A DNA stretch of 34,452 nt from Chrysochromulina tobinii (taxonomy: Eukaryota), in NCBI GenBank assembly GCA_001275005.1, contig JWZX01001759.1:1-34452 (forward strand), written 5' to 3'. A program made the translations under genes and the position numbers. Positions 1,008 through 33,900 of this stretch are shown here, piece after piece (the stretch's first letter is position 1; each line of letters begins with the position of its first letter). Below the pieces are notes generated by a model. It was not told where the DNA came from, searched no databases, and saw only the letters and a program-made list of their open reading frames with translations.

Positions 1008-3201
1008 ATGCCTCGCCCGATTTTTACTCCCGAGTACAAATGGGATACCCGGCGTCTGTCCGCACCCGTAGTGATGCCCGACGTTCACGTTCAATCTTCG
1101 CCGCCGCCGCAATCCAAACTCACGCCGGCACAAGCACGCTCAAAGCGCATCCTCGAGTCCTCGAGGCGACGCATGCCTGACAGTTCACTCGCCCCTCCCG
1201 TAGTCATGCCCGACGCGAATGTAGCCCAAGGCGTGTCGGCGAGACGGCTTCAGATGCAGAATGCCAGGGCAGCCCTCAAGGCAGTCGCGCAGCAAGACAA
1301 GGCCAAGGCCGAGAGTGAGGGTGCTACCGCGGGTTTTGCGGTAAGGAGTGACGCTGCTGCAAAGGAGGAGGAGATGCGGAAGGCCAAACAGGCCAAAGAG
1401 GAGCAAGCGAAGCGTGGGCGTGAGGAGGCTGCCGCCGCGCAAGCTGCGGGCAGGGTTGGCGCGGCCCAAAAGGCCGAGGAGGCGGCGCGAGCAAAGGAGG
1501 CTGCACGAGCAGGCGGCGCGGAGCAGGCGGCGCTCGAGCAGGAGCGGGCGCAGAAGCTCAAATCGGCCAACGCGAGCTTCGAGGCCGGGAGGCTTATGGT
1601 TAAGAAGGTAAAGTATCGGGAGGCGGAGGCGGCGTTCCGGACTGCGCTGCAGATCAGGTCAGAGGTGCTCGGTAAGCGCCACGAAGAGGTGCTCAAGGTT
1701 CAAACGGAGCTCGGCGAGGTGTGCATACGCCAAGACAACCACGTCGAGGCAGCGCGCCTCCTCCACGAGGTCTATGAGAGCTATCTAGCGGCCAAGGGCC
1801 AGGCGGATGTGATGACCCTCAAAGTGGTCCATTTGCTGGGCAACGCGCTCTCCGCCAGTGCGCGCTACGAGGAAGCCGAGACGCTCTTGAAGCTCACCAT
1901 CGACGCGTGCTCCTTGCAGTACGGCCCGAGTGCCAAGAATACGCTCGTTTTCAAGACGGGGCTCGGCTTGCTCTTTGACAAGCAGGATCGCCTCGAGGAC
2001 GCAGAGCCCTTGTTGCGTGAGGCTCTGGCGGCGCGCCGGAGGGCAGCCTTGGTGGCCGTTGTGAGCGGCACGCATGATGTGAACGACCTGTGCGCCTCGA
2101 TGGGCAGCCTCGCCGTGGTGCTCCAGAAAAGGAAGCAGCCTGGACCGCTCGCTGAGGCGGAGGCGCTCTATCGAGAGGCGCTCGAGCTCACGCGCAAGCA
2201 CGACGAGGGAAAGGAGAGTCGCACTTCCATTGGATTGATGAATAACTTGGCAGCGCTCCTCAAGCCCGAAGCGAGCCGCTCGGACGAGGTTGAGCAGCTC
2301 TTGCGGCAATGCATCAAGGCCGAGAAGGAGCTCTATGGACCGTCGAACGACGCGACTCTGAACACCACCGAGCAGCTCGCTTCGCTCCTGCATCACACCC
2401 GAGGCTTACACGCCCAGGCCGAGGAGCTGCTGCGCGACGTGCTTCAGGAACGTCGAGCCGCGCTCGGCCTGATGACCTCTGATGACCTCTGATGACGTCT
2501 GATGACGTCTGATGACATCTGATTGCCTCCCTCATCAGGAACGTCGAGCCGCGCTCGGCCTGATGACCTCTGATGACCTCTGATGACATCTGATGACGTC
2601 TGATTGCCTCCCTCATCAGGAACGTCGAGCCGCGCTCGGCCTGGGTCATGAGAGCACGATCACGACGATGGTGAACCTGGCGTCTGTCTTCCGTGCCATG
2701 GGCCAAACTCCGCAATCGGAAGCGCTGCTCAAGGAGGCGCACGAGGCAAGCCTAAAGGCGCTCGGCGCGGGGCATTACAAGACCAAGCTGATCGAAAGGG
2801 ACTTGACGGGCTTGGGCGCTGTTCCAAAAGGTACAGGAGGCTCCTTCGTGGCCAAAGGGTTCGACATGACGATTAAGACGCTCGGCGTGGCCTCGGGCTG
2901 GCAGGAACTCTTCGATAACTTCGACAATTCGGACGCGGGCCTGGAGGAGGCGTTTGCCAAGGTGGACACGGACACGAGCGGCAAGATCGACGCCAAAGAG
3001 TTGAAGGCGTACATCCAGAGCAAGTACAAGTCGAATGGCCTTGACGACAAGACCATCGAAATAATGATGGCGGCGGCGGACACGAACAAAGACGGCGAGA
3101 TTGACCTCGATGAGTTCAAGATGATCATGCGCGCTGGGGCTGGGCCAGGGGCTGGGCCAAGCGTGGAGACAGAAGAGGAGAGCTTCCGAGGCGGTTTGTA
3201 G
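1008..3201 (+). CDS. TPR-repeat (kinesin light chain/nephrocystin-3-like) protein with C-terminal EF-hand pair; exons 1008-2447, 2620-3201
   Basis: Repeats such as KYREAEAAFRTALQIRSEVLGKRH and LAEAEALYREAL; EF loops DTDTSGKIDAKE and DTNKDGEIDLDE; removing 2448-2619 joins the two ORFs in frame (DVLQ|ERRAALGLGHES). Start codon uncertain. Confidence 0.85.
2448..2619 (+). other. Repeat-family intron #1 (two tandem modules; apparent GA-AG)
   Basis: 24-nt copy of downstream exon start + 6 decamer units + CCTCATCAG, then the same again with 5 units; excision restores the frame. Confidence 0.85.
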
Positions 3202-5730: not shown

Positions 5731-6170
5731 TGAGCGGCAGAGCCGTGTACATGTAGAGAGTAGAGTTTAGAGAGTGGCAACCGTGCAACTAATTGTATTA
5801 AAGCGCTATAGGCGCGGCGGCTACACCGCAACCGCATCGTACTCCTTCGTACTCCATCGTACCGCTAGTCGCTCCTGGCAACCATCCGTGTCGCGCCAAT
5901 CGGACGTGTGAAATCCCACAGAAATAAGCCCTCCGCCCACGTGCTGGCCTCTTTCGGGCGGACGGGGTCAACAGTGGCTTGCGCAGCTGGAACGCGGCCG
6001 GAGAGCATACGCTGCACACGTGCACAGAGCCACAGACAGTCAGAAAAAGCCCGCCACACGCATGCGCGTAGGAGCCCCGAACCACGCAGATTGCGTCACC
6101 GGGCGCGCAGTGGACCGCCCGGCTGCCGGCGGTGAGCGGCCGCGCATCATTGAGCACGTCCACGGAAGAC

Positions 6171-7784
6171 TCACGCGAGGGTTGGCGCCGGCTGTGGCCG
6201 CATCAGCGACGATGGCAGCGGCGGCAGTGGCAGCTCTCGCGACCACTCGAGGGCAGCCTCGACCTTGGGCGCACTCACGTTATAAACCGGGTTGACGAAT
6301 CCCAAAGCCGTCTTCCAGTGGGCTGGGCTGGTCGCGGGGCGTGTGCCCGCGGTGGCAGGATCGGGCTCTGGCTCTGCCGCCGCCACGGCGAGCCCCGAGA
6401 GGCAGTAGCACGTGTGATAGTAGTCGCGGCTGCGAGGCACAGTGGTCGATCAGAGGAGCATCGGGTGAGAGCGGCAGGCTGTGGGGAGCATCGGGTGGGA
6501 GCGGGCAGGCTGTGGGCGGCAGGCAGTGGGCAGAGGGGCAGCTTTGGGATTCGTCAACGGCAGGCTGTGGGCGGCAGGCAGTGGGCAGAGGGGCAGCCGA
6601 GTTGCAGCCGGGGTCAGAGGGCAACCGAGCTCCAAGGCCAAGAGGTTTGAGGGGTCGAGAGAGCGAGCGGCGCACCCACGGCCGGGCTTGTCACGCAGCC
6701 CCCCATTCGACTGCTGGCAGCAGACGAACAGATAGTCGAGCAAGCCATCTGTGGAGAAGAGCGAAGCGATCCCTCCAGAGGGAAGCTCGGCGGTGCGTGT
6801 GAGCGCCGCCTCGAGCAACGGGAATGCACCGCCTTGCCAGAAGGAGTAGCACCCGTCGACGAGCTTGTTTGTGCGGCCTTGGAAGCCGCCGTGCACGCCC
6901 ATCTGCCGCTCGACCAGCCAGCGGGTCAGCGGTGGCACCCGAAGGAGCTCGACACGGTCGAGGAGCACCATGGACGCGAGGCCGCAAAAGGTATAGCCGC
7001 CGTGCGCCTCCTCGCCAGGCGTCGCGCCGATCCCGCCCTCATAAGTTTGACATGACGCGATCCACTCCGCGGCACCACGGCGGAGCTCGTCGTCGAGCAG
7101 GTTGGTCAACGATGCCACCGCCAGCGCGGTATAGACGCCGCGCACGTCGCACTCACCGTCGTCGTGCATGCTGAAGCTGCCGTCGGGCCTTTTCATGCGC
7201 CGCAGGAAGACGCGTAGCGACGCGCGGTCGATGGCGGCAAGTGCGGCGGGCGTGCCAATCGTCACCAGCGTGTTGATCGCAGCGTACGTGGGTGCCAGGT
7301 GCGCAATCTGGCCCGGATGCGCCCCCCCGGCGAAGCCACCAGTGCCGGGCACCTGGCAGCGCCTGAGGAAGCCGACGACATTGTCGGCCTCGTCGCCTCG
7401 CAGCGCGTGGCTCGGCCCGAGGAGCTCGAGCGAATGGGAGATCCAGTAGGTGAGCCACGGACGCGATGCGTCGAGGCTCACGTAGCCGGCCGCAAGCGAG
7501 CCGAGCCCGGCTTTTAGGTATGCGGCGTGTTCAGTTCGGCAGAAGGATACGCTGCGATCGCGTGCGCACGTAAGGCAGGTCGTCAGAAGCGGGATGGGAC
7601 GGCATGCGCATGGCTCATTATCGTTCACTCTCTGCCGGGAGGCGCACGATTCACGGCTGAGGCTGCCGTCCGGATTGATCCATTCTTCAAAGACCGCGCG
7701 GCATGCATCCTCGGTCTTGAGCTGCTCATTCGTCGAGTGCGTGGGCAGGCCGTCGTCGTACGTCGACTCCCAGAAGGTCGCCAT
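6171..7784 (-). CDS. FNTB: Protein farnesyltransferase beta subunit; exons 7784-7648 (first intron tentative), 7551-6676, 6429-6171
   Basis: LDASRPWLTYW, AHLAPTYAA, EAHGGYTFCG, FQGRTNKLVDGCYSFWQ; splicing 6430-6675 gives DKPGRG|RDYYHTCYCLSGL. Confidence 0.93.
6430..6675 (-). other. GT-AG intron with internal tandem duplications and an inverted exon-derived insert
   Basis: GG|GTGCGC...CTCGCAG|C; 39-nt direct repeat 6504-6542/6559-6597; 6541-6558 is the exact reverse complement of exon 6291-6308. Confidence 0.85.
7552..7647 (-). other. Probable in-frame GT-AG intron (96 nt) in FNTB
   Basis: TC|GTGCGC...CTGAC...ATCGCAG|C; contains no stop, so not required by the frame. Confidence 0.5.
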
Positions 7785-12273: not shown

Positions 12274-12571
12274 CCTTGGCCGACTCAAGGACGACTTGGA
12301 GGCCAAGCTGGGTTTGTCGATTTGGGCCGCTAAAAAGGGCTCTGATTAGGGGCGTAATCACTTTGCCTTCTAGGTTCGAAAAAACCCCGTGATCAAGTCA
12401 AGTCACGTCACGTCAAGGCACGTCAAGGGCACGCGCAAGTTGACCTTGAGATCTTGATTGTGTTGCGTGAGTGCTCGCCAAAAAGAGATTTTCTCCGACG
12501 GCGGTGCCGCGCCCCGAACGAAAAAGCGGCACGCGACCCGAGTTCCCCTCAAGACCCTCAAGGTGTCCACG

Positions 12572-15301: not shown

Positions 15302-18300
15302 TCACCTCATCCGCACCGCGGGGAAACGCAGCAGGGACTCGGAGGCAGCTGAGTCGCGATCCGAGCCGCGGCTCGAGTCCGAATCACAAGATAGGCGCGA
15401 CGAGCGCAGAGAGTGCAGCGAGTCGCGGATCGAGTGACGAAGCGAGGTGCGGATCTCCGGCGACGAGTACTCGAGCGTAAGCGCCTCGAACTGCTCGTTC
15501 ATCTCGACCGAGAGCGGCTTGCGCAGCGGTGAGAGCACGGGTGCCTCGAGGGTGTACTTGGTGTCGAAGTTGGACACGTCGCTCGTCGGGTCGGCGGCAT
15601 TCAGCGTGGGCACAAACGGCGCCTCAAGCTTCCCGAGCATCAGCAGCTTCCAGTTCAGGTTGCGGAAAAAGGGGTGTGTCTTGAGGGAGGCAAAGTCGGA
15701 CTGACACGTGGGCGACTCTTCTCGGACACCGAGCCGCTGGGCGGGGTCCTTGGTGAGAAGCCCTTTGATGAGCCCCTTGGCCTCATTCGTGAACCAAGAG
15801 GGCAGCCGCAGCTTCGTGTGCACGATCTTGCGCTGCAGCTCCTTCTGCTCCTTGTGCCACCACGGCGCCTCGCCCGTCATCATCTCGTAGAGCAGCACAC
15901 CTGATGAGGGAGGCAATCAGAGGTCATCAGAGGTCATCACACCTGATGAGGCGTCATCAGCTCGTAGAGCAGCACACACCGAGCGACCACACGTCTCATC
16001 AGAGGTCATCAGAGGTCATCAGAGGTCATCAGAGGTCATCAGAGGTCATCAGCACACACCGAGCGACCACACGTCCACCGCCTGGCCACAAAGCATGCGC
16101 CGCAGCACCTCGGGCGCCATGTACTCGGTCGTGCCAACCAGCACAGGCCGGCCTGAGGCGGACGTGTGCGTGGCGGAAGCGGTCAGCCCAACGGCTGCGA
16201 GCCCGAAGTCACAGAGCTTCGCGTTCCCGTCGGCGCAGATGAGCACATTCTCCGGCTTGAGGTCGCGGTAGATGATGCTCTGCGCATGCAAGTGCTCGAG
16301 CGCGAGCATCACCTGCCAAATGAGGGAGGTCATTAGGGAGGTCATTAGGGAGGTCATTAGGGAGGTCATTAGGGGGGGTCATTAGGGTAGCCATGAGGGT
16401 GCTCGAGCGTCGTGACGATCACCTCGGCGGCATAGAAGCGCGCCATCTTCTCCGAGAACATCTCATGCGCCCTCAGGTGCGCGAAGAGCATGCCGCCCGG
16501 CACGTACTCCATCACGAAGTGCAGCTTGGACGCGCTCTGGAAGGCACATTCGAGCCCGAGGATGAACGGGTGGCGCGCCTCGGCATGCTGGCGCAGGATG
16601 CTCAGCTCGATCGCAATATTCTCCATCGAACGATAGCGCTCAATGGACGCCTTATCGACCACCTTCATCGCATAGATCTGGTGGTTGAGGTGGCAGCGTA
16701 CTTGGAAGACCTTGCCGTAGCCTCCCTTGCCCACGAGCCGCAGTAGCACAAAGTCGTCCATGGAGAGCGTGCGCATGCTTGCCGTCTCCGCCAGCTCGAG
16801 CTCCTCCACGAGCGCGTCCACCGCCTCCGCCGCCGCCGCCGCCGCCACACGTGCCAAAAAGTCCCCATCGAGCGGCGACGCGAGGTGCTCACCATGGCGC
16901 TCGTTGGCGTCGCTCCTTACGCTGCCCGCCGCCGCCTCCTCCGCCGCCTCCGCCGCCTCCGCCTCCTCCGCCTCCTCCGCCTCCTCCGGCGCCGAGATCG
17001 ACCGCAGCAGCGCGGCGAGGGCCGCCGTGAGCTCTGCCGCTGCCGCTGCGGCATGCGCCCCATCGTACCGCGGCAACTCGCCGCTGATCAGCGAGCGACT
17101 CGACGGCGGCACGATGATCTTGAGCACGACGGGGGGGCTCGGCGGCGTCGTTGCGGGCGGCGTCGTCGCCGCGCTCGCGCCGGCGTCGTTCTCGTCAGGC
17201 ATCATCGAAGTGTCTGGATCGGCCAGATTGAGCGTCGTCGCGGGCGTCGTCGTCGTGGGCGCCGCAGTGCCCGTCGGCACCGCAAGCTCGTCTGTGACCG
17301 TGGCGCTGAGTGGTGGGCGCAGGCCGGTGGCAGCAGCAGCGGACGTTGAGGCGCCGACGGCGGGCGCGCTGCGCTGGGCACCTGGTGGCGGAGCGCCGTG
17401 CTGGGCGGCGGGAGGCAGCTTCATCGAGTGTGGGAAGTTGTGCGGCGGAGAGTGCCGAGGGTGAGGGGTGTCAGGACCGTGCAACGGCTCCCTGATCTCG
17501 TCTTCGATATCATCGTGTAAGGGCTCCCTGATCTCATCGTCGTGCGCCGCCTCGATCGACATATGCACCGGATCCGATGCTGCCCACGACGGCGCGGCCG
17601 CGCTGCCGGCCGCTGCCCACGACGGCGCCATGGGAGCCGCGACGGCGCCAGTGCCGGTGGATGCTGCAGCAGGGGTGGGTGGTGTGACCGAGGAGGAGGT
17701 CGAAGAGGCGGGCGTGGGTGTGGCCGAGGAGGCGAGGAAGGAGGAGGCCGAGGAGGAGGTGGAGATGGCTGTAGTGCTCGACGCGGCGCTCATGCGCAGC
17801 ATCGAGGAGACGGAGGCTGCCTCGAGCCCCCCGCTACCCGCCTTGGCCCCCGGCGAGAGAGGGCCGCTGCTCGCTGTGGGCGGCGGCCGGCTATGTAGAA
17901 GCGATCCATGGCTAAGGGTGGCGGGGAGGGCATCGAGGTGACGCAGCTCTCCCAATGCGGTGGCAGCCGCGCTGCTCTGCTGCTTGATCTTCTGTGCCGA
18001 GGACTTGAACTGATACAGCCGATCCAGCATTGCCTGGCCCTCATCCGCCGATGCGCCCGCGACGGCGCCGGCGCCGCGTCCGCCGCCGCCGCCGCTGGCG
18101 CCCACGCCGGCGCCGGCGCGTCCCCCCCAGGCCCCCGCAGGGGGCTGCTTGCGCCACGTGGCGTCGGGCGACGCGCCGGCGGCACTGGCGCCGAGGCTGC
18201 TCCCCCACGCGCTCGGCTTGGGCGTGGACGTGCTGAGTGGGTGCGCCTCCTCCTCCTCGCGCGATTCGCGCGGCGCCACGTGTACGGTCTCGACCGTTGG

Positions 18301-20172
18301 TGCCCGCCACGGCGCGTGCATGGCCGAGGCGGCCGCGGAGGCCGAGGCGGCCGCGGAGGCCGCGGAGGCCTGCGGTGCGCCCGGCTCGGCGGGCATCGTC
18401 AAATCCGCCTCCTCCCACGAGGCCACGGAGACGGTCGACATGCGGTTGCTCGGTCGGCCTGATGGGCGGGCCGAGGGCTGCAGCGAGCGAGCGTCCGGCG
18501 CCGTCGTGGGCACCGGCGCGGCGGACGGAGCGGCTGAAAGAGGCGGCGCGGGGGGCGCAGGTGGAGCTGGTGGCGCAGATGGAGCTGGTGGCGAAGGCGG
18601 AGCTGGCGGCGGTGGAGCTGGCGGCGGTGGAGCTGGCGGCGGTGGAGGCGGAGGAGCGGCGGAGGGCGGGCCGTCGGCGCCAGCTGCGGCTGCGGAGGCG
18701 GCTGCGGAGGCGGCTGCGGGGGCAGCTGCGGAGGCGTCTGCGGGGGCAGCTGCGGAGGCGTCTGCGGGGGGCCATCGCCCCTCGTCATCACGAGCCATCT
18801 GGCGCTGCAGCGTGGCCAGCTCGTACTCGAGCTGCGGAATCGAGAGCACCTGATGAGGGAAGCCATCGGAGGTCATCAGTGAGGCAATCAGAGGCAATCA
18901 GCTCATACTCGAGCTGTGGAACTGAGAGCACCTTGGCCTGTAGGGCCTCGGTCAATCAGAGGCAATCACATGCAATCAGAGGCAATCACATGCAATCATA
19001 GGCAATCAGCGGTCATCAGTGAGGTAATCAGAGACCATCAGAGGCCATCAGAGGCCATCAGAGGCCATCAGAGGCCATCAGTACCTTGGCCTGTTGGGCT
19101 TCGTTGAGAGGTTTGCCATCAGCGTGCTCCTGCTGCACCGCGAGGGCCTGCCGGAGCTTCTTGAGGATCGCTCGCTCGCGCTTCTCCGCCTCGCTCTTGG
19201 CACTGCTCGTGGCCTCGGCGGCCGGGGTGCCCGCTAGCTCGTACGAAACTGCCGCCTCGGCCATCGGCTGAGTCTCGGCAGACAGCGCGCCCTGCGCCTC
19301 TGCGGCCGCCTCTGCGGCCGCCCCTGCGGCCGCCTCGGCTGCCTCGGCCGCCTCCGCCGCCTCGGCCGCCTCCATCCTGGCTCGTAGCGCCGCCTTCTTC
19401 CTCTCCCGCGCGGCCGCCTTCGCAGCGGCCGCCTCATCGGCGCTCGCCTCGGCGCTCGTCACGGCGCTCGCCGCACTGCTCAGCACGGCGCTCGACTCGG
19501 CGCTCAGAACGGCGCTCGCATCGGCGCTCAGCACGGCGCTCGCCTCGGCGCTCAGCACGAGTTTAGTCACGGCGCTCGTCTCGCTGGCCGTGGCACGGCC
19601 CTCAGAAGATGGCGTGACAGCCCCCCCAGCTGCCCCGACGGGCAGTGCCGTGTCAGTGGCCTCGGCCGATGGTGGCGCCGCGGCCGCGGGCGGCGGCGTG
19701 GCCGCGGCCTTGGCGGCGGCCACGTCCTCAGCGGCCGCCTGCGCGGCCTCCAACTGCGCCTCCGCCGCCGCACGCTCCTCCTTGAGCTCTGCCTCGCTCG
19801 CAAGCTTCTGCAGCTGCTCCGCGGTGAGGGTCTTGGCCTCGAGGCTGCGTGGCGAGAGGCACATCGACCCGGAGGGCGTGAGTGGCATCCACTGGAACTC
19901 GCGATGGGCAGCTCCAGGCGGCAGCATGTGCGTTGCGGCGGCAGTGCTGACCTTCGGATTTCCTCAATCTGACGCAGCTTCTTCGTGAGCGCACGGATGC
20001 GCTTGTTCAGGGCTGTTACGGGATCGTCGATGGACTGCGCGAGACACAGCCGCGCTCTCAGGTCAGCAGCGGGAAGAGCGGACACGGTGCTGAGCATGAT
20101 GGGTACGTCGCGCGGGTCTGTGCAGCTCGTTTCACGCACCACCACAGCCGTGGATGGCCCCTCGGTTGCCAT
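15302..20172 (-). CDS. S6K-like AGC kinase with a long N-terminal extension (~1419 aa); exons 20172-19952, 19844-19085, 18849-16423, 16312-16060, 15900-15302
   Basis: [54 protein letters not shown] tail APFVP...DVSNFD; four GT-AG introns give one continuous frame (4260 nt). Confidence 0.85.
15901..16059 (-). other. Repeat-family intron #2
   Basis: G|GTGTGTGCTGATGACCTC...TGATTGCCTCCCTCATCAG|GTGTG; internal junction copy 15952-15995. Confidence 0.88.
16313..16422 (-). other. Repeat-family intron #3 (12-mer CCCTAATGACCT variant)
   Basis: GAG|GTGATCGTCACGACGCTCGAGCAC...(CCCTAATGACCT)n CCCTCATTTGGCAG|GTGATGCTCGCGCTCGAGCAC. Confidence 0.88.
18850..19084 (-). other. Repeat-family intron #4
   Basis: AAG|GTACTGATGGCCTC...CCCTCATCAG|GTGCTC; internal junction copy 18899-18950. 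Confidence 0.88.
19845..19951 (-). other. Ordinary GT-AG intron
   Basis: AG|GTCAGC...CCACGCAG|C joins [13 protein letters not shown] in frame. Confidence 0.75.
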
Positions 20173-24904: not shown

Positions 24905-27767
24905 TCAGAAGCCAGTGAAGAGCTCCGAGTCGGCGGGCTTGCACGGCTTCGCATCAGTGACGATTCTCTCCGCGGGCAGCCATTCGTACTTGGACGCATC
25001 GAAGAGGGGAGGCTTAAAGGCAGAGCCGCGCTGCGCATAGTCGGTCCAGTCGAAGCCCGATTTGGCATAAAAGGGGTGCTCCTTGATGTCCTTGCAGCCG
25101 TCGCGCAGGTTGCCATACCGCTTCGAGATATCCTTCTGGAGCAGCTTGGAGATCAGATCTGCCGCATCGATGTTCATCTCGGGCGGGTAGTGGACCGTGC
25201 CGTCGAGGATCTTTTGGTACGTCGCTAGGTGGTCCTCGGCCTCAAAGGGCGAGTGGCCGTTGAGCATCTCGTAGAAGAGAACGCCCATCGCCCAGTAGTC
25301 GACTGCCTTCGAGTGCCCCTTCTCGAGGATGATCTCGGGCGCGAGATACTCTGGTGTTCCACAGAGCGTCCACGAGCGGTACTTGATGACCTTCGCGAAG
25401 CCAAAGTCGGTCAGCTTGAGCGCGCCGTCCTGGGCGACCAGGATGTTCTCGAGCTTGAGGTCGCGGTGTACGATGCCCATACTGTGCATGTACTCGAGAG
25501 GAAGCATCACCTGCCGAGGGCGAGCGACCGCGGGCGGTAAGTGGGGGTTGTGTGTGTCTGTGTAGGGGTGGGGGTGGGGGGGAGGGCAGAGGGCGGAAGG
25601 CGCGTGCCTGCGACACGTAGATACGCGTGTCGGGGACGGAGAAGCGCTTGTGCTTATACAGCTGGTCGAACAGGTCGCCGCCCGGGCAGAACTCCATGAT
25701 GAGAATGAGGTTGGACGGGGTGACAAAGCCGGCCCACTTGTTGGTAACGAATGGATGCGCTATCCTGTCGAGGATCTGCGTCTCCTGCATAATGTGCTCC
25801 ACCTGGCCCATCGAGACAATGTCCGCCTTCTGCATCTGCTTGAGTGCAAAGACCTCGCCCGTGCTCCTCACGCGGCATCGGCGCACTGTACCGAACGCGC
25901 CTTCGCCGAGCGTCCCTTTGGTCACTGTGAAGTCACTCAGCGTCATCGGGCGCTGCGCCTTGATGTACTTGTGCTCGTTGGGCATCTCGACGCCTGCGCT
26001 CGCGCTGCCGGTGCTCTCCGCGTCCGCGTCGCTTGCCTGCTGCTGCAACTCGGCGCCGCTCGCAGTGTACTTGCGCATCGCGAGCAGTTCCCCCAGCGGC
26101 CCTAGAAGCCGTTGGAAGGCGCCGCGGTCCATACGCACGACGGTCGTGCCCGCGGCGGCGGCGGTCACTGACGCCATCGTGGGCGCCCCCGTCTTGAGTG
26201 ACAACTCTCCGAAGTAGTCTCCCTGATGAGGGATCACTCAGATGCAATCAGATGCAATCAGATGCAATCAGATGCAATCAGAGGAGACACGTTCGGAGCA
26301 TACCTCCCTGCGACGTGCGAGCTCGCCCTGGCCCGCCTTGGTGATCACCACCTCGCCTCGCGCGATCACATAAAAGTGGGTGCCTTCCTCGCCCTCGGTG
26401 ATGATCGCGTCATCCTGGGCGTAGGTGACCTCCTCGAGCGCATCCACCATGCGGTTGCGCTGGTCCTTGTCCAGCGGCGCGAGCAGTGGCACCTTTTCGA
26501 GGAACGATTCATAGCTCGCCGCCTTCTTCGTGTTCGCCTCGAGCACGATCGTGCGGAACGAGACGCGATCGAGCGACCATAGCACAACGGGAGTCGCCGC
26601 CTGGATCGTCGCCGTGCGCGGGCAATTGTACATGAGCGCGAGCTCCCCAAACGACTCGCCCGCCCGGAAGCCCCTGACGCGCACCGGGTGGCTGTCGGGA
26701 TCCTCCCCCTGCACAAACGCATCGAGCTCGCCACTGTCCACGATGAAGAAGTGGTTCCCCTTCTCGCCTTGCGTGATGACATTCTGACCGGGGTGTATTG
26801 TGTGCTCCATCATGGCCTCCTGCAGCATCGTCAGCTGCATCTCGTTGAGCCGCGAGAAGATGACGTTGCGACTCACCGCCCCCATGATGCGCGCTACCTG
26901 CTCCGTGGTCTTCTTCTTCCCAGATGCGACCTTGCCGGTCAAGACGCCTGTCGTCGCCTCCGCCGCCTCACCAAAGCGGCGGCCGCGCATCTTGCTGCCG
27001 GCCGGGGCGCCCTCAGCCTTGAGCGCGAGCTGCTGCTGACCCGCCTCCCGCACGAACGCATGCAACGGCACCAGCTTCAAGAAATCCTCCTTTCGGAACG
27101 TGGCGCACCACACCGCCGTCTCCGCGCGGCGTGTCTCCTGGTGCTTCGAGTTCTGCAGAAGCTCGACGTGCCCAAAGTAGGCCTGCCGGCCGTACTTGGT
27201 GCTCTCGGCTGGGCCGCCCGCGACCGCGACCACCGTGCCTTCACGCACGACGAAGAACTTATTGTCGCCCGGTGTGCCGACCTCGTGCATCGTGGCGCCT
27301 GCCGCGTAGCGCACCTCGCGGCACGCGTCGGCGAGCAGCCCAAGCTCGTAGTCTTCGGAGAGCTCGGCGAAGATTGGAAGCAGCCTGAGAAAGGGGACCC
27401 ACTCGGCGCGCTTCTTGACGATCTTGTCGCCGAGCGCTGCATTGAACGCGCGCCGATTCACCATGAGCAGAGTCACCTCCGGCGAGGTCGCCATGATGCT
27501 CGCGCTGCGCGGCTTGCCGGTCAGCAGCGAAAGCTCACCGCACCACGAGCCGGCGGTGAGGGAGCGGACGTTGCGCCGCTCACCCGCGCTGTCCGCCATC
27601 CACACGTCGCACGTGCCGCTCTTGATCAGGTAGAAATTGTTGCCCTTGTCCCCTTGCCGCATGATGACCTCCTGTTGCTTCACCTGGACCTCTGCCATCG
27701 AGTCGACGAAGCCTCTCCGCTCCTCGTCGGTGTCCATGTAATTGTGCAGCAGCGCACAAGGTGGCAT
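24905..27767 (-). CDS. Cyclic-nucleotide-dependent kinase: four cNMP-binding domains fused to a PKA-C-like kinase domain; exons ~27767-26304, 26222-25608, 25510-24905 (5' end uncertain)
   Basis: Phosphate-binding cassette motifs CGELSLLTGKPRSAS, FGELALMYNCPRTAT, YFGELSLKTGAPTMAS; kinase LGEGAFG, HRDLKLEN, WTLCGTPEYLAPE, KRYGNLRDG, ends FTGF-stop. Confidence 0.88.
25511..25607 (-). other. GC-AG intron
   Basis: CAG|GCACGC...CTCGGCAG|GTG gives YVSQ|VMLPLEYMH in frame. Confidence 0.8.
26223..26303 (-). other. Repeat-family intron #5
   Basis: GAG|GTATGC...(TGATTGCATC)4 TGAGTGATCCCTCATCAG|GGAGAC gives ARRRE|GDYFGEL. Confidence 0.88.
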
Positions 27768-30948: not shown

Positions 30949-33900
30949 CTAATCGCGCAACGTCCACACCCGAATCGTCTCGTCGAGCGAGCCTGAACAC
31001 GGGCGCCCCTCGTGCACGACGAGGCTGTACAGACCCCCTCGATGGCCCGCGAGCACGCGCAGTCGCTCGTACGTGCCCAGATGCCACACGATGCAGGTCT
31101 TGTCCGAGGAGGCGGAGAAGAGCCGTTGCCGGTGCGCGTCGGCTGCGAGCGCGCACACGAAGCTGCGGTGGCCGGCCAGTGTGGCTTGTTGCTCGAGGGA
31201 TGCGAAGTCCCAGACGCGAATGAGCCGATCGCCGCCGCCGGAGAGCAAGCGCAAGCCGGCGGCCGAGCCGGCGGGCGATGGCGGCGACGGCGGCGACGGC
31301 ACGAGCAACAGAGCGTAGACAGCGCCGTCGTGGGCGATCGGTTCGAGGCGGCCCCGTGCACGGAGTGTGTACAGAGGCGCAAGGGTGCGAGCGTCCCACA
31401 CACGAATGGTCGCATCGGCGGAGGCCGAGACGAAGCGCTCAGTCGCGTAGATGACGATCGCATGGATCTCGGCCTCGTGAGCCTCCTTGGCGAGGTGTGT
31501 CAGGGTGATGCTCGGGCGGACCATCGCCGAAGCACCTAGCCCGAGCCCACCTGCCCTGCCTGCCCTGCCTGCCGGGTGGACCGCCGCCGAAGCGTCCTGC
31601 AACGTCGCGGGCGATGGATCGGGCGCGGGATAGGGCGCCACGCTGGGCGGTGCATGCGGAGATTGGATCTCGAGCCGCGGAGATTGGAGCTCGAGCCGGA
31701 GCTCGAGCCGGCTGATCCCGCAGTCTGCGGAGCCGCAATACACTGGGCCGTCGGGAGTGGCCGCGCTGGCGCACAGCACGCTAGCCGCGTGCACCGTGCA
31801 CCTCTGCATGCACTCCCAGCGCCCAGAGCCACCTTCAGGTGGGCGCCACAGCTGAACTGTCCCGTTGGCAAGCCCGGCCAGGAGCACGCCGCGCAGCGGT
31901 AAGAGGGCGAAGACTGTCGTGTCGTCAGCCGCATCCGCCTCGACGGATCGAGCAACAGCGGGCCGTGGCTCGAGTGCCAGGGCAGCCTGAGCAGCGCAGT
32001 CGAGCTCGACTACCAACCGCCATGCCGCACGCGCCCCAGCTGCCTCCGCCTTAGCACCCTGCGCTGCCGCCGGCGCGCTCCGCTCCGTCTCCGCCGACGC
32101 TCCCTCGGCGGACTCTCGATGCTCCTCCTGCCAGATGCTCACCTTGCCATCCGCGCCACCTGAGAGCAAAATGGGGTTGCTGCTGTCGGCGGGTGTCAAT
32201 GCCGGTCTACCCAGGGCCGCGTCGGCGGTGGCGAGGGACCAGACGCAGCCACGATGGGCAGAGAGAACCTCCGTCGTCGGCTCTTCTGCCAGGTCCTGAG
32301 CGCCTGGGCGAACCGGGACGCGGTGAAGCGCCAGCGCACCGTCCACGCTCCCGGAGAGTAGCTGCGTCGCTGCCCGGCCGGTGCGCCGGGTTGGATGATG
32401 AAGAGGAGCGGCTATGAGCGATAGGATGCCGGAGGAGTGAGCAGCACAGCGGACGACCGGTAGGCTCGGTAGGCTCGGTGGGAGGGAGGTGGCGGAGGCG
32501 GCGGAGCCGGCGGAAGCGGCGCATTGGACGGCCGCCGCCGCATCCCAACACAAGAGTTCGCCGCGTCCGCCCGCTCCATGCAACCACCCCTCCGCATCGG
32601 CCGCCAGTGCACAGACGGAGCCCTCGCCGCTAGTCAGCTGGCCGACTGCCCTTCGCCCCGGCACGTCCCAAAGCACAACGTGCCCCTGTGCATCGGCCGA
32701 GGCGAGCTGGAACGTGCCCGCGAGCGGCGTGCACCCAGTCCTCGCGGGGTCGCCTGCTGCGGCTGCGGCGCCATCGTCCAGCACGGGTGGTAAGAGCGCT
32801 GCCAGAGCAAAGACCGACGCACGATGCATGCTCGGGTCGAGCGTTGCCACCGCGCTCAGATCGGCGCGATTCCACAGACGCACGCGATGGTCCGCCCCGG
32901 CGGTGACGACGAGGGACGACGCGGCGAAGGCGAGAGCGTAGACACCACCGCCCTGCTCGGTCACGTGCACGCGCGCCGTTGGCAGCATCGAGCCGCCTGC
33001 GAGACCGAGCACCGGAAGCGGGCGGACGGACCATCGCAACAATTCGCCTTTCGCATCTGCAGAGAAGAGAACCGACGCGGCGGCATCGGCGGCAGCGGCG
33101 GCGGCACCAGCTTCTGCGTACGCTCCGCTGGCGCAGGCACAGCAGAGCACGCTCCCCGTGTGGCCCATGAGCGCCACGATGGCGCGGAACCGCATGAGGT
33201 CCCAAATGCGTATCGATCCATCGGCGGAGGCGGAGACTAGCTGGCCTGAGGGGGTGAGCGTCAGAGCGTGCACCTGCTCGAGGAGTGCCTTCCGATGAGG
33301 GCCGCAATCAGAGGCCATCACATGCAATCACATGCAATCAGAGGCCATCAGAGCGTGAGAGCGCGCACCGCATCCGTGTGGCCGCGAAGCGTCGCCACCT
33401 GCTCGGCCATCGCGGGCACTTGAGCGGGCGCGGCCGCCGCTGCTGTGCCATCTAAAACGGCTCCTGCGGCCACGTAACCACCATGGCCGGCCACGTAACC
33501 ACCGTCGCCGACCACGCGGCTGCCCACGCTGCCAGCTGCGCCACCGACCACACCGCCGACCGCGCCATCGCCTGCGCCGGCCAGGTCGGTGGCGAGTCGC
33601 GGTACGCATGCATCCGGAGTCCAACGGCAGAGGCGGATCTCGCCATTGCCGCCGCCGCATGCAAGCGTGTGGTCTGGCAGCATCAACATGGACCAGACGC
33701 ACGTGCCGTGCGGCTGGATCTGGCACGGCGCCGTGCCGAGCGCCACGTACCCAGGCGCCTGCGCGCCCGCCACGGCGCCCGTTGCGTTCGACTCTTCGCT
33801 GACGGCGCCTGCCACGGCGCCATCTCCCGCGATCTGGCCGCCGGAGGCCGCCGCACCAGTTGCGGATCCTCCCGAGATCGGAGCTCGGGTTTCGGCAGCC

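Follow-up and report, generated by a model that had tools for sequence, protein, structure and literature searches.

A repeat-built intron of Chrysochromulina tobinii contains a copy of its own exon junction, most likely the buried border of an earlier insertion

Where new spliceosomal introns come from has been debated for a long time, and the prevailing view attributes mass gains to introners derived from transposons. Non-LTR retrotransposition (TPRT) of SINE-like RNAs produces variable TSDs, a fixed 3′ end and a variable 5′ end with microhomology. Like the introns described here, those of another haptophyte, Emiliania huxleyi, contain short tandem repeats; these repeats, of 10–11 bp and reportedly described by Read and co-workers in 2013, are not known to have been tied to long flank duplications or to gain. 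Family 1 introners of Symbiodinium carry the 3′ splice site and obtain the 5′ site from the TSD (Gozashti et al., 2022, PMC9860276). As in the family described here, such introners form a dispersed, intron-making family that brings the acceptor, takes its donor (GT, GC or predicted GA) from duplicated host sequence and leaves the mRNA unchanged; unlike it, they have TSDs of 3–9 bp, often have TIRs and are grouped by sequence similarity, whereas the present family has variable duplications of 10–58 nt, an unstable 10-mer array, variants shared between neighbours and re-duplicated borders. The arrangement is reversed in a Chrysochromulina introner that the same study reports from a TARA MAG: its TSD measures 4 bp, and the splice site that it brings is the 5′ one. 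Rogers tandem duplication at AG/GT (Hellsten et al., 2011, PMC3265369) likewise gives an interior resembling the flanking exon, AG/GT-like sites and a donor from the duplicate, but in that model the duplicated segment provides donor and acceptor alike and examples are very rare, whereas here the duplicate is short, the acceptor comes from the inserted array, and a fifth or more of a large family has this arrangement. Double-strand-break repair with filler DNA (PMC3296678, PMC11782384) also leaves an insert between direct repeats with microhomology at the joint, but the filler here is always one sense array family, apparently from nearby introns, and is reused genome-wide. Relaxed donors, among them GC and GA, are also found in the introns of E. 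huxleyi (PMC4028052). No description of the present repeat family was found in the searchable literature, which leaves out subscription papers and does not establish absence from print; in the available text of the C. tobin genome paper the word “intron” appears a single time, and haptophytes go unmentioned in the main text, as excerpted, of a 2025 introner survey.

The window, a stretch of 34,452 nucleotides of C. tobinii DNA (contig JWZX01001759.1), contains six family introns made of 10-mers such as CTGATGACCT and CTGATTGCCT, most of which end in CCCTCATCAG (Table 1). For the survey, 129 loci were picked by the family motif from metagenome contigs and, with the window, came to 831 kb; removal of 19 overlapping loci left 695 kb with 183 non-redundant members that have a recognisable 3′ end. 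An earlier pipeline had missed the focal intron, and intron boundaries were redefined for the 183-member set. Because the loci were picked by motif and strains were pooled, the survey frequencies are not genome-wide estimates. No match to the family motif was found in viral contigs. As in introners, related introns lie at many unrelated gene positions (183 members in 695 kb, 6 of them in the window), and splicing is precise, the three family introns of the kinase gene, in the RNA-covered region, all being skipped by RNA contigs (3/3). What the members lack is a discrete unit similar from end to end: the 10-mer unit and the 3′ terminal are common to them, length and make-up vary, and close similarity is found mostly between neighbours. 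Array length differs between strains at one and the same intron (L002/L004, and P0220 and P0222 at the focal intron), indicating that arrays are still changing; allele pairs among the sampled loci gave this array-length change (L002/L004) and no clean presence–absence case. Separately, L037 and L082 are 94% alike over 531 nt, after which L082 runs on continuously and L037 turns into a family intron preceded by another upstream exon, a break for which exon shuffling at an intron, a paralogue and a chimeric contig are all possible.

Table 1. Features of the focal intron, its host gene and the other family introns of the window
Feature	Position	Strand	Evidence or remark
Focal intron, 235-nt GT-AG, 10-mer array family	18850..19084	-	RNA contig skip and open spliced frame
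Used donor, 5-nt remnant GTACT, 4/5 match to downstream exon start	19080..19084	-	
5′ array, 10-mers of CTGATGGCCT / CTGATTGCCT / GTGATTGCAT types; probable second insert	18951..19079	-	
Copy of upstream exon's last 19 nt, 17/19 identical	18932..18950	-	
Copy of downstream exon's first 33 nt, 29/33; probable 5′ duplicate and donor of original intron	18899..18931	-	
3′ array and terminal CCCTCATCAG with acceptor	18850..18898	-	
Putative original 82-nt intron, nested at 3′ end	18850..18931	-	22/38 long-5′-duplicate introns are 63–96 nt
Upstream exon, Ala-rich, ends ...LNEAQQAK	19085..19844	-	RNA joints at both ends
Downstream exon, ends in N-lobe of Ser/Thr kinase domain	16423..18849	-	Pfam PF00069 E=5.5e-18; RNA joints
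Second family intron of kinase gene, diverged ~25-nt 5′ duplicate of next exon	16313..16422	-	RNA skips 110 nt
Third family intron of kinase gene (kinase intron), junction copy 16 + 26 nt	15901..16059	-	RNA skips 159 nt, 4/4 runs
Family intron, TPR gene: 24-nt duplicate and array, twice in tandem; predicted GA donor	2448..2619	+	Sequence only
Predicted family intron, cNMP-binding kinase gene, without long duplicate	26223..26303	-	Sequence only
Predicted family intron, WD40 gene, 18-nt 5′ duplicate with 2 differences	33274..33368	-	Sequence only

The focal intron belongs to the 10-mer array family and is confirmed as spliceosomal. Exactly its 235 nt are skipped by a single RNA contig of 331 nt and depth 3.9, from one of four runs (X17), and the reading frame is open once these are spliced out and meets stops in 3/3 frames if they are retained. 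Its two arrays are related: the core of the 3′ array recurs within the 5′ array at 33/39 identity, and each array has one of the only two copies of the 14-mer CCTCACTGATGACC in 831 kb. Between the arrays, the initial annotation had recognised a copy of the spliced junction at 18899–18950, and this is real: without a gap, 46/52 positions agree with the spliced sequence made of 19 nt from the end of the upstream exon (19085–19103) and 33 nt from the start of the downstream exon (18817–18849). The match scores 74, whereas the best of 2000 Markov-resampled junctions reaches 29 and the best of 967 other stretches in the window reaches 23. Four of the six differences are synonymous, the remaining two being Q>L and I>V, and three are CpG-type. 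These counts had been given correctly, but the synonymous share is not significant once drift of the exon is allowed (p=0.14; p=0.03 if the copy alone drifts), and the excess was rejected as the mark of a diverged donor allele. The concern that such copies might be no more frequent than chance did not hold, since they recur far above chance in the sampled family introns.

As might be expected of a used alternative exon, the frame stays open through the copy, and AG and GT sites are present, with the acceptor-like CCCTACAG 6 nt before the inner GT. We nevertheless consider it very improbable that the copy is such an exon or an artefact of assembly. RNA (X17) skips the whole 235 nt, and the contigs of the four RNA runs used for the splice test leave the middle of the copy (18908–18936) uncovered; an unspliced RNA contig, X13 (18867–19037), does span it. 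Against an artefact, 98% of the region's words are present in twelve DNA runs (possibly the assembly's own source), and the six differences from the exons exclude a collapsed repeat. The CCCTACAG motif (18932–18937, −) would define a possible two-codon micro-exon, absent from the RNA contigs of the four runs.

The proposal that the intron was gained, and that relatives might keep an intron-less site, agrees with what relatives contain. The focal site is read through in single ORFs of P0212 (24 kb contig), P0215 (183 kb), P0168 (18 kb) and P0216 (9.6 kb), and both kinase sites are also crossed by P0212, P0168, P0216 and P0214. Gene calls in close relatives run into the intron and stop, and therefore such calls are not splice-aware. 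Two of the relative clusters thus appear to hold intron-less genomic DNA at the focal site; two further clusters read through on short contigs that are possibly transcripts. All five members of the window's own cluster (the window's included) and a relative at 84% have the array directly after the donor, and among these neither an intron-less nor a simple 82-nt allele was found, with the first intron bases alone visible. Read-through of all three family introns of the kinase gene in relatives argues that these introns are gains, and the comparison of sequences supports the focal intron as a probable lineage-specific gain. An old intron remodelled by border duplications and deletions, with no gain, would be in keeping with the frequent right-border duplications (24 spacers in 19 introns). 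It is hard to credit when relatives read through the site, when the exon after a family intron begins with G in 172/183 cases, and when the two RNA-confirmed non-family introns of the same gene have no duplicate and are followed by exons starting CC and TC.

How family introns begin and end suggests how they arise. The intron opens with a 10–58 nt duplicate of the downstream exon start in 41/183 members, compared with 0/909 shuffled pairs; a few of the 41 (e.g., L014, L024, L034) are boundary mis-calls inside tandem units, and the earlier pipeline had counted a long 5′ duplicate in 53/195 introns. The median length is 23 nt (n=38), half of the duplicates (19/38) are perfect, and donor position +3 has changed to A in 3/38. 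The donor comes from the duplicated exon start, as in tandem duplication of the Rogers type, but the acceptor comes from the array terminal CCCTCATCAG rather than from the duplicated exon. The next exon begins with GT in 132/183 family introns and in 86/122 without a visible duplicate, against 6% after any CAG; GT starts even where no duplicate is visible suggest that the whole family was born by the duplication route. Microhomology of at least 2 nt is present at the duplicate–array joint in 11/26 testable cases, versus 7.9% in controls. The length of the duplicates is not fixed and differs from the fixed, short 2–10 bp TSD of TIR DNA-transposon introners; CTGATGA and TCATCAG are complementary over 7 nt, yet family 5′ ends fall anywhere in the 10-mer unit. 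The TPR intron was cut in two ways, and the frame is kept by the GA donor alone, at the start of the 24-nt duplicate, so that it is predicted to be GA-AG.

The interiors of family introns carry many further copies of their own borders. Among 164 inter-array spacers, 108 match the flanks of their own intron: 59 are left-border copies, 24 exon-start copies, 10 other upstream, 4 other downstream and 11 junction calls, with none inverted; 322 controls gave 10 direct matches, 3 inverted matches and 2 junction calls. The 34 longer unassigned spacers are mostly degenerate array and contain no exon piece from another gene. Left-border copies continue into the array in 41/59 cases and exon-start copies are preceded by CAG in 20/24, which indicates that the usual template contains the intron. 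At locus L054, an intron (−) of an ABC-F-like gene includes 24 nt that were taken, via a 5-nt match, from one of that gene's own exons, which lies 865 nt farther downstream (about 5860–5885 and 6797–6821).

The initial annotation had read the focal copy as a record of an intron-less allele or of spliced mRNA. That reading is mostly unsupported and is not needed, because the left border of a long-duplicate intron already reads upstream exon followed by downstream exon, and an inner copy of it requires neither template. Templating by spliced mRNA or cDNA during repair of a break in the intron would accord with the uniform orientation of the assigned flank copies (108/108 direct), with the sense bias of the array units (1117 sense to 5 antisense) and with the synonymous tilt of the focal differences (4/6). 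We regard it as improbable, since most left-border copies run into the array, which spliced mRNA could not supply, and most exon-start copies follow a CAG. No copy split over another intron was seen in 86 spacer parts, a test with almost no opportunity, as the gaps between family introns (at least 82 nt) exceed the curated copy lengths.

Nine junction-copy introns were kept by eye from two pipelines: the two in the window, L001, L014, L034 and L052 from the 11 calls, and L031, L049 and L038 from 8 earlier calls. Four of the 11 (L047, L056, L060 and L063) were dropped by eye as right-border or array matches, L012 of the earlier 8 was dropped by eye as weak, and L032, whose copy is missing 15 nt around the junction, was left out of both sets. 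None of the nine has fewer than 68 nt between its inner donor and its acceptor, and 6/9 have 68–95 nt, the size of simple family introns. The exon copy and the retained 5′ piece together make 22–34 nt (summed by hand). L052 and L034 each show an intact long-duplicate intron with a stack of units on its 5′ side, every unit consisting of a donor, an array, a terminal and a piece of exon. Furthermore, in 4/9 the copy and the 5′ end of the intron have a state in common against the exon: an extra TG in the kinase intron, an extra base in L001, and changes in L034 and L049. Those in the kinase intron and L001 are derived, because they shift the frame and are not ancestral coding states; that in L034 is synonymous and ambiguous. 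The downstream halves of the copies are diverged at 27/286 positions and the upstream halves at 8/168 (p=0.10). Together, these features most likely identify the inner junction copy as a buried old left border, left by two successive events of insertion and duplication.

For the focal intron, we put the probability at about two in three that it was gained, that the copy is its old border, and that two events, via likely microhomology-guided template switching, produced the present structure. In the first event, an array ending in CCCTCATCAG would have been copied into an exonic AG/GT site so that the next 33 nt came to stand on both sides of it; of the resulting 82-nt intron, the first 33-nt copy would give the donor and the array the acceptor. 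In the second, a further array would have been copied in, and 24 nt straddling the donor (19 nt of exon and 5 nt of intron) duplicated, which buried the old border and made the new outer GT the donor. We infer this order of the two insertions, which is not dated at the focal intron itself because the halves of the copy are equally diverged (2/19 and 4/33). At +3 the copy has the state of the exon (GTG) rather than that of the intron's 5′ end (GTA), which obliges the two-event reading to assume a single later change at this donor position. Trimmed first duplicates outnumber intact ones (9 against 2 elements), and the two-step reading consequently needs a one-step form of the second event. By eye, the two arrays are unlike each other in most of the other junction-copy introns, which also speaks against this reading.

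A single complex event on the empty site is an alternative to the two-event history, in which synthesis jumped from the array to the intact target strand (or to an intron-less sister or homologue), across the junction, and back to the array. Agreement of the copy with the exon at +3, equal divergence of the two halves and the lack of an 82-nt allele make such an event possible; multi-jump events like that in L054 (865 nt, 5-nt match) do occur, and one donor template would account for the kinship of both focal arrays. A single event leaves unexplained the frameshifting changes common to copy and 5′ end in the kinase intron and L001, the stacked border units of L052 and L034, and the always full-size inner part, and we consider it unlikely, if clearly less so than a spliced mRNA template.

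For 15/129 introns the best-matching array is found at their own locus, against 2.4 expected. Rare array 14-mers are common to 6/69 same-strand pairs within 1 kb, with an open frame between the introns in 6/6, compared with 133/16437 different-locus pairs, 0/111 same-strand pairs farther apart and 2/36 opposite-strand pairs; an unweighted 12-mer neighbour test showed no excess over other loci (p=0.28), the excess appearing with rare words only. Later gene conversion between neighbours could be a source of this local sharing, and the sense bias of array units may reflect mechanism or selection for splicing. Microhomology, direct-only copies and variants common to neighbouring introns suggest, from the pattern of the sequences, local template switching, in which repair or replication synthesis would jump between templates within about 1 kb, often to a neighbouring intron of the same gene. 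Such a pattern would be compatible with DNA slippage and equally with a pre-mRNA template.

TPRT suits the variable duplications, and the family resembles TPRT products in its variable TSD and variable 5′ end with microhomology. It suits less well the 35/59 inner events without the terminal before the copy. The CCCTCATCAG 3′ end, which TPRT would fix, is constant in spliceable introns, partly because of how these introns were chosen, and stands before only 24/59 inner left-border copies; moreover, the donors look local, and no partner RT was seen in the sample, a crude RT motif having 0 matches in 831 kb, which is about 1% of the 59-Mb genome (size from PMC4580454). More tentatively, and with rather less confidence than in the two-event history, we suggest that the introns may breed in cis without a transposase, their own unspliced pre-mRNA templating repair at the locus and writing repeat and acceptor into a nearby exon between long duplications. 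If true, this would be self-propagating, RNA-templated mass intron gain, and it would explain the sense-only arrays, the direct-only copies and the variants shared within genes.

Several observations concern the host gene and its neighbours. A 68-aa protein (19061–19264, −) that ends at a stop inside the focal intron is present in NCBI, UniRef and EukProt sources, and an exact protein look-up returned a match for one of five ORF forms; an entry stopping in the intron implies that public annotation seems to miss the intron and to split the kinase gene. The focal intron cuts a short domain (19105–19230, −) that also occurs in unrelated proteins (P0218, P0225), with 68% in a 1428-aa ankyrin-kinase-like protein; judged from protein similarity, this spread suggests domain shuffling. 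The neighbouring farnesyltransferase gene is identical at 370/370 positions to a protein labelled Chrysochromulina parva, which places the window in that freshwater species or one very closely related to it. An intron of this gene (about 6420–6675, −) has internal direct duplications of another repeat type, without the 10-mer array. An intergenic-looking short repeat of TCAAG/TCACG at 12393–12433, beside an AT-rich stretch, resembles a TCAAG run upstream of a gene in L002.

A repeat family that generates introns with long, variable duplications is likely to be an undescribed way of intron gain. Two cautions follow from it: finding a copied junction within an intron does not alone prove that the template was mRNA or lacked the intron, and families of this kind may be overlooked when introners are screened for by similarity. 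The alga, a freshwater haptophyte, is cultured and sequenced, and the question of a DNA or an RNA template is therefore testable. Intron gain in this family appears to be a bulk process of mixed character, in which exon duplication is combined with the local copying of an acceptor-bearing repeat, and the history of the gain is readable inside each family intron.
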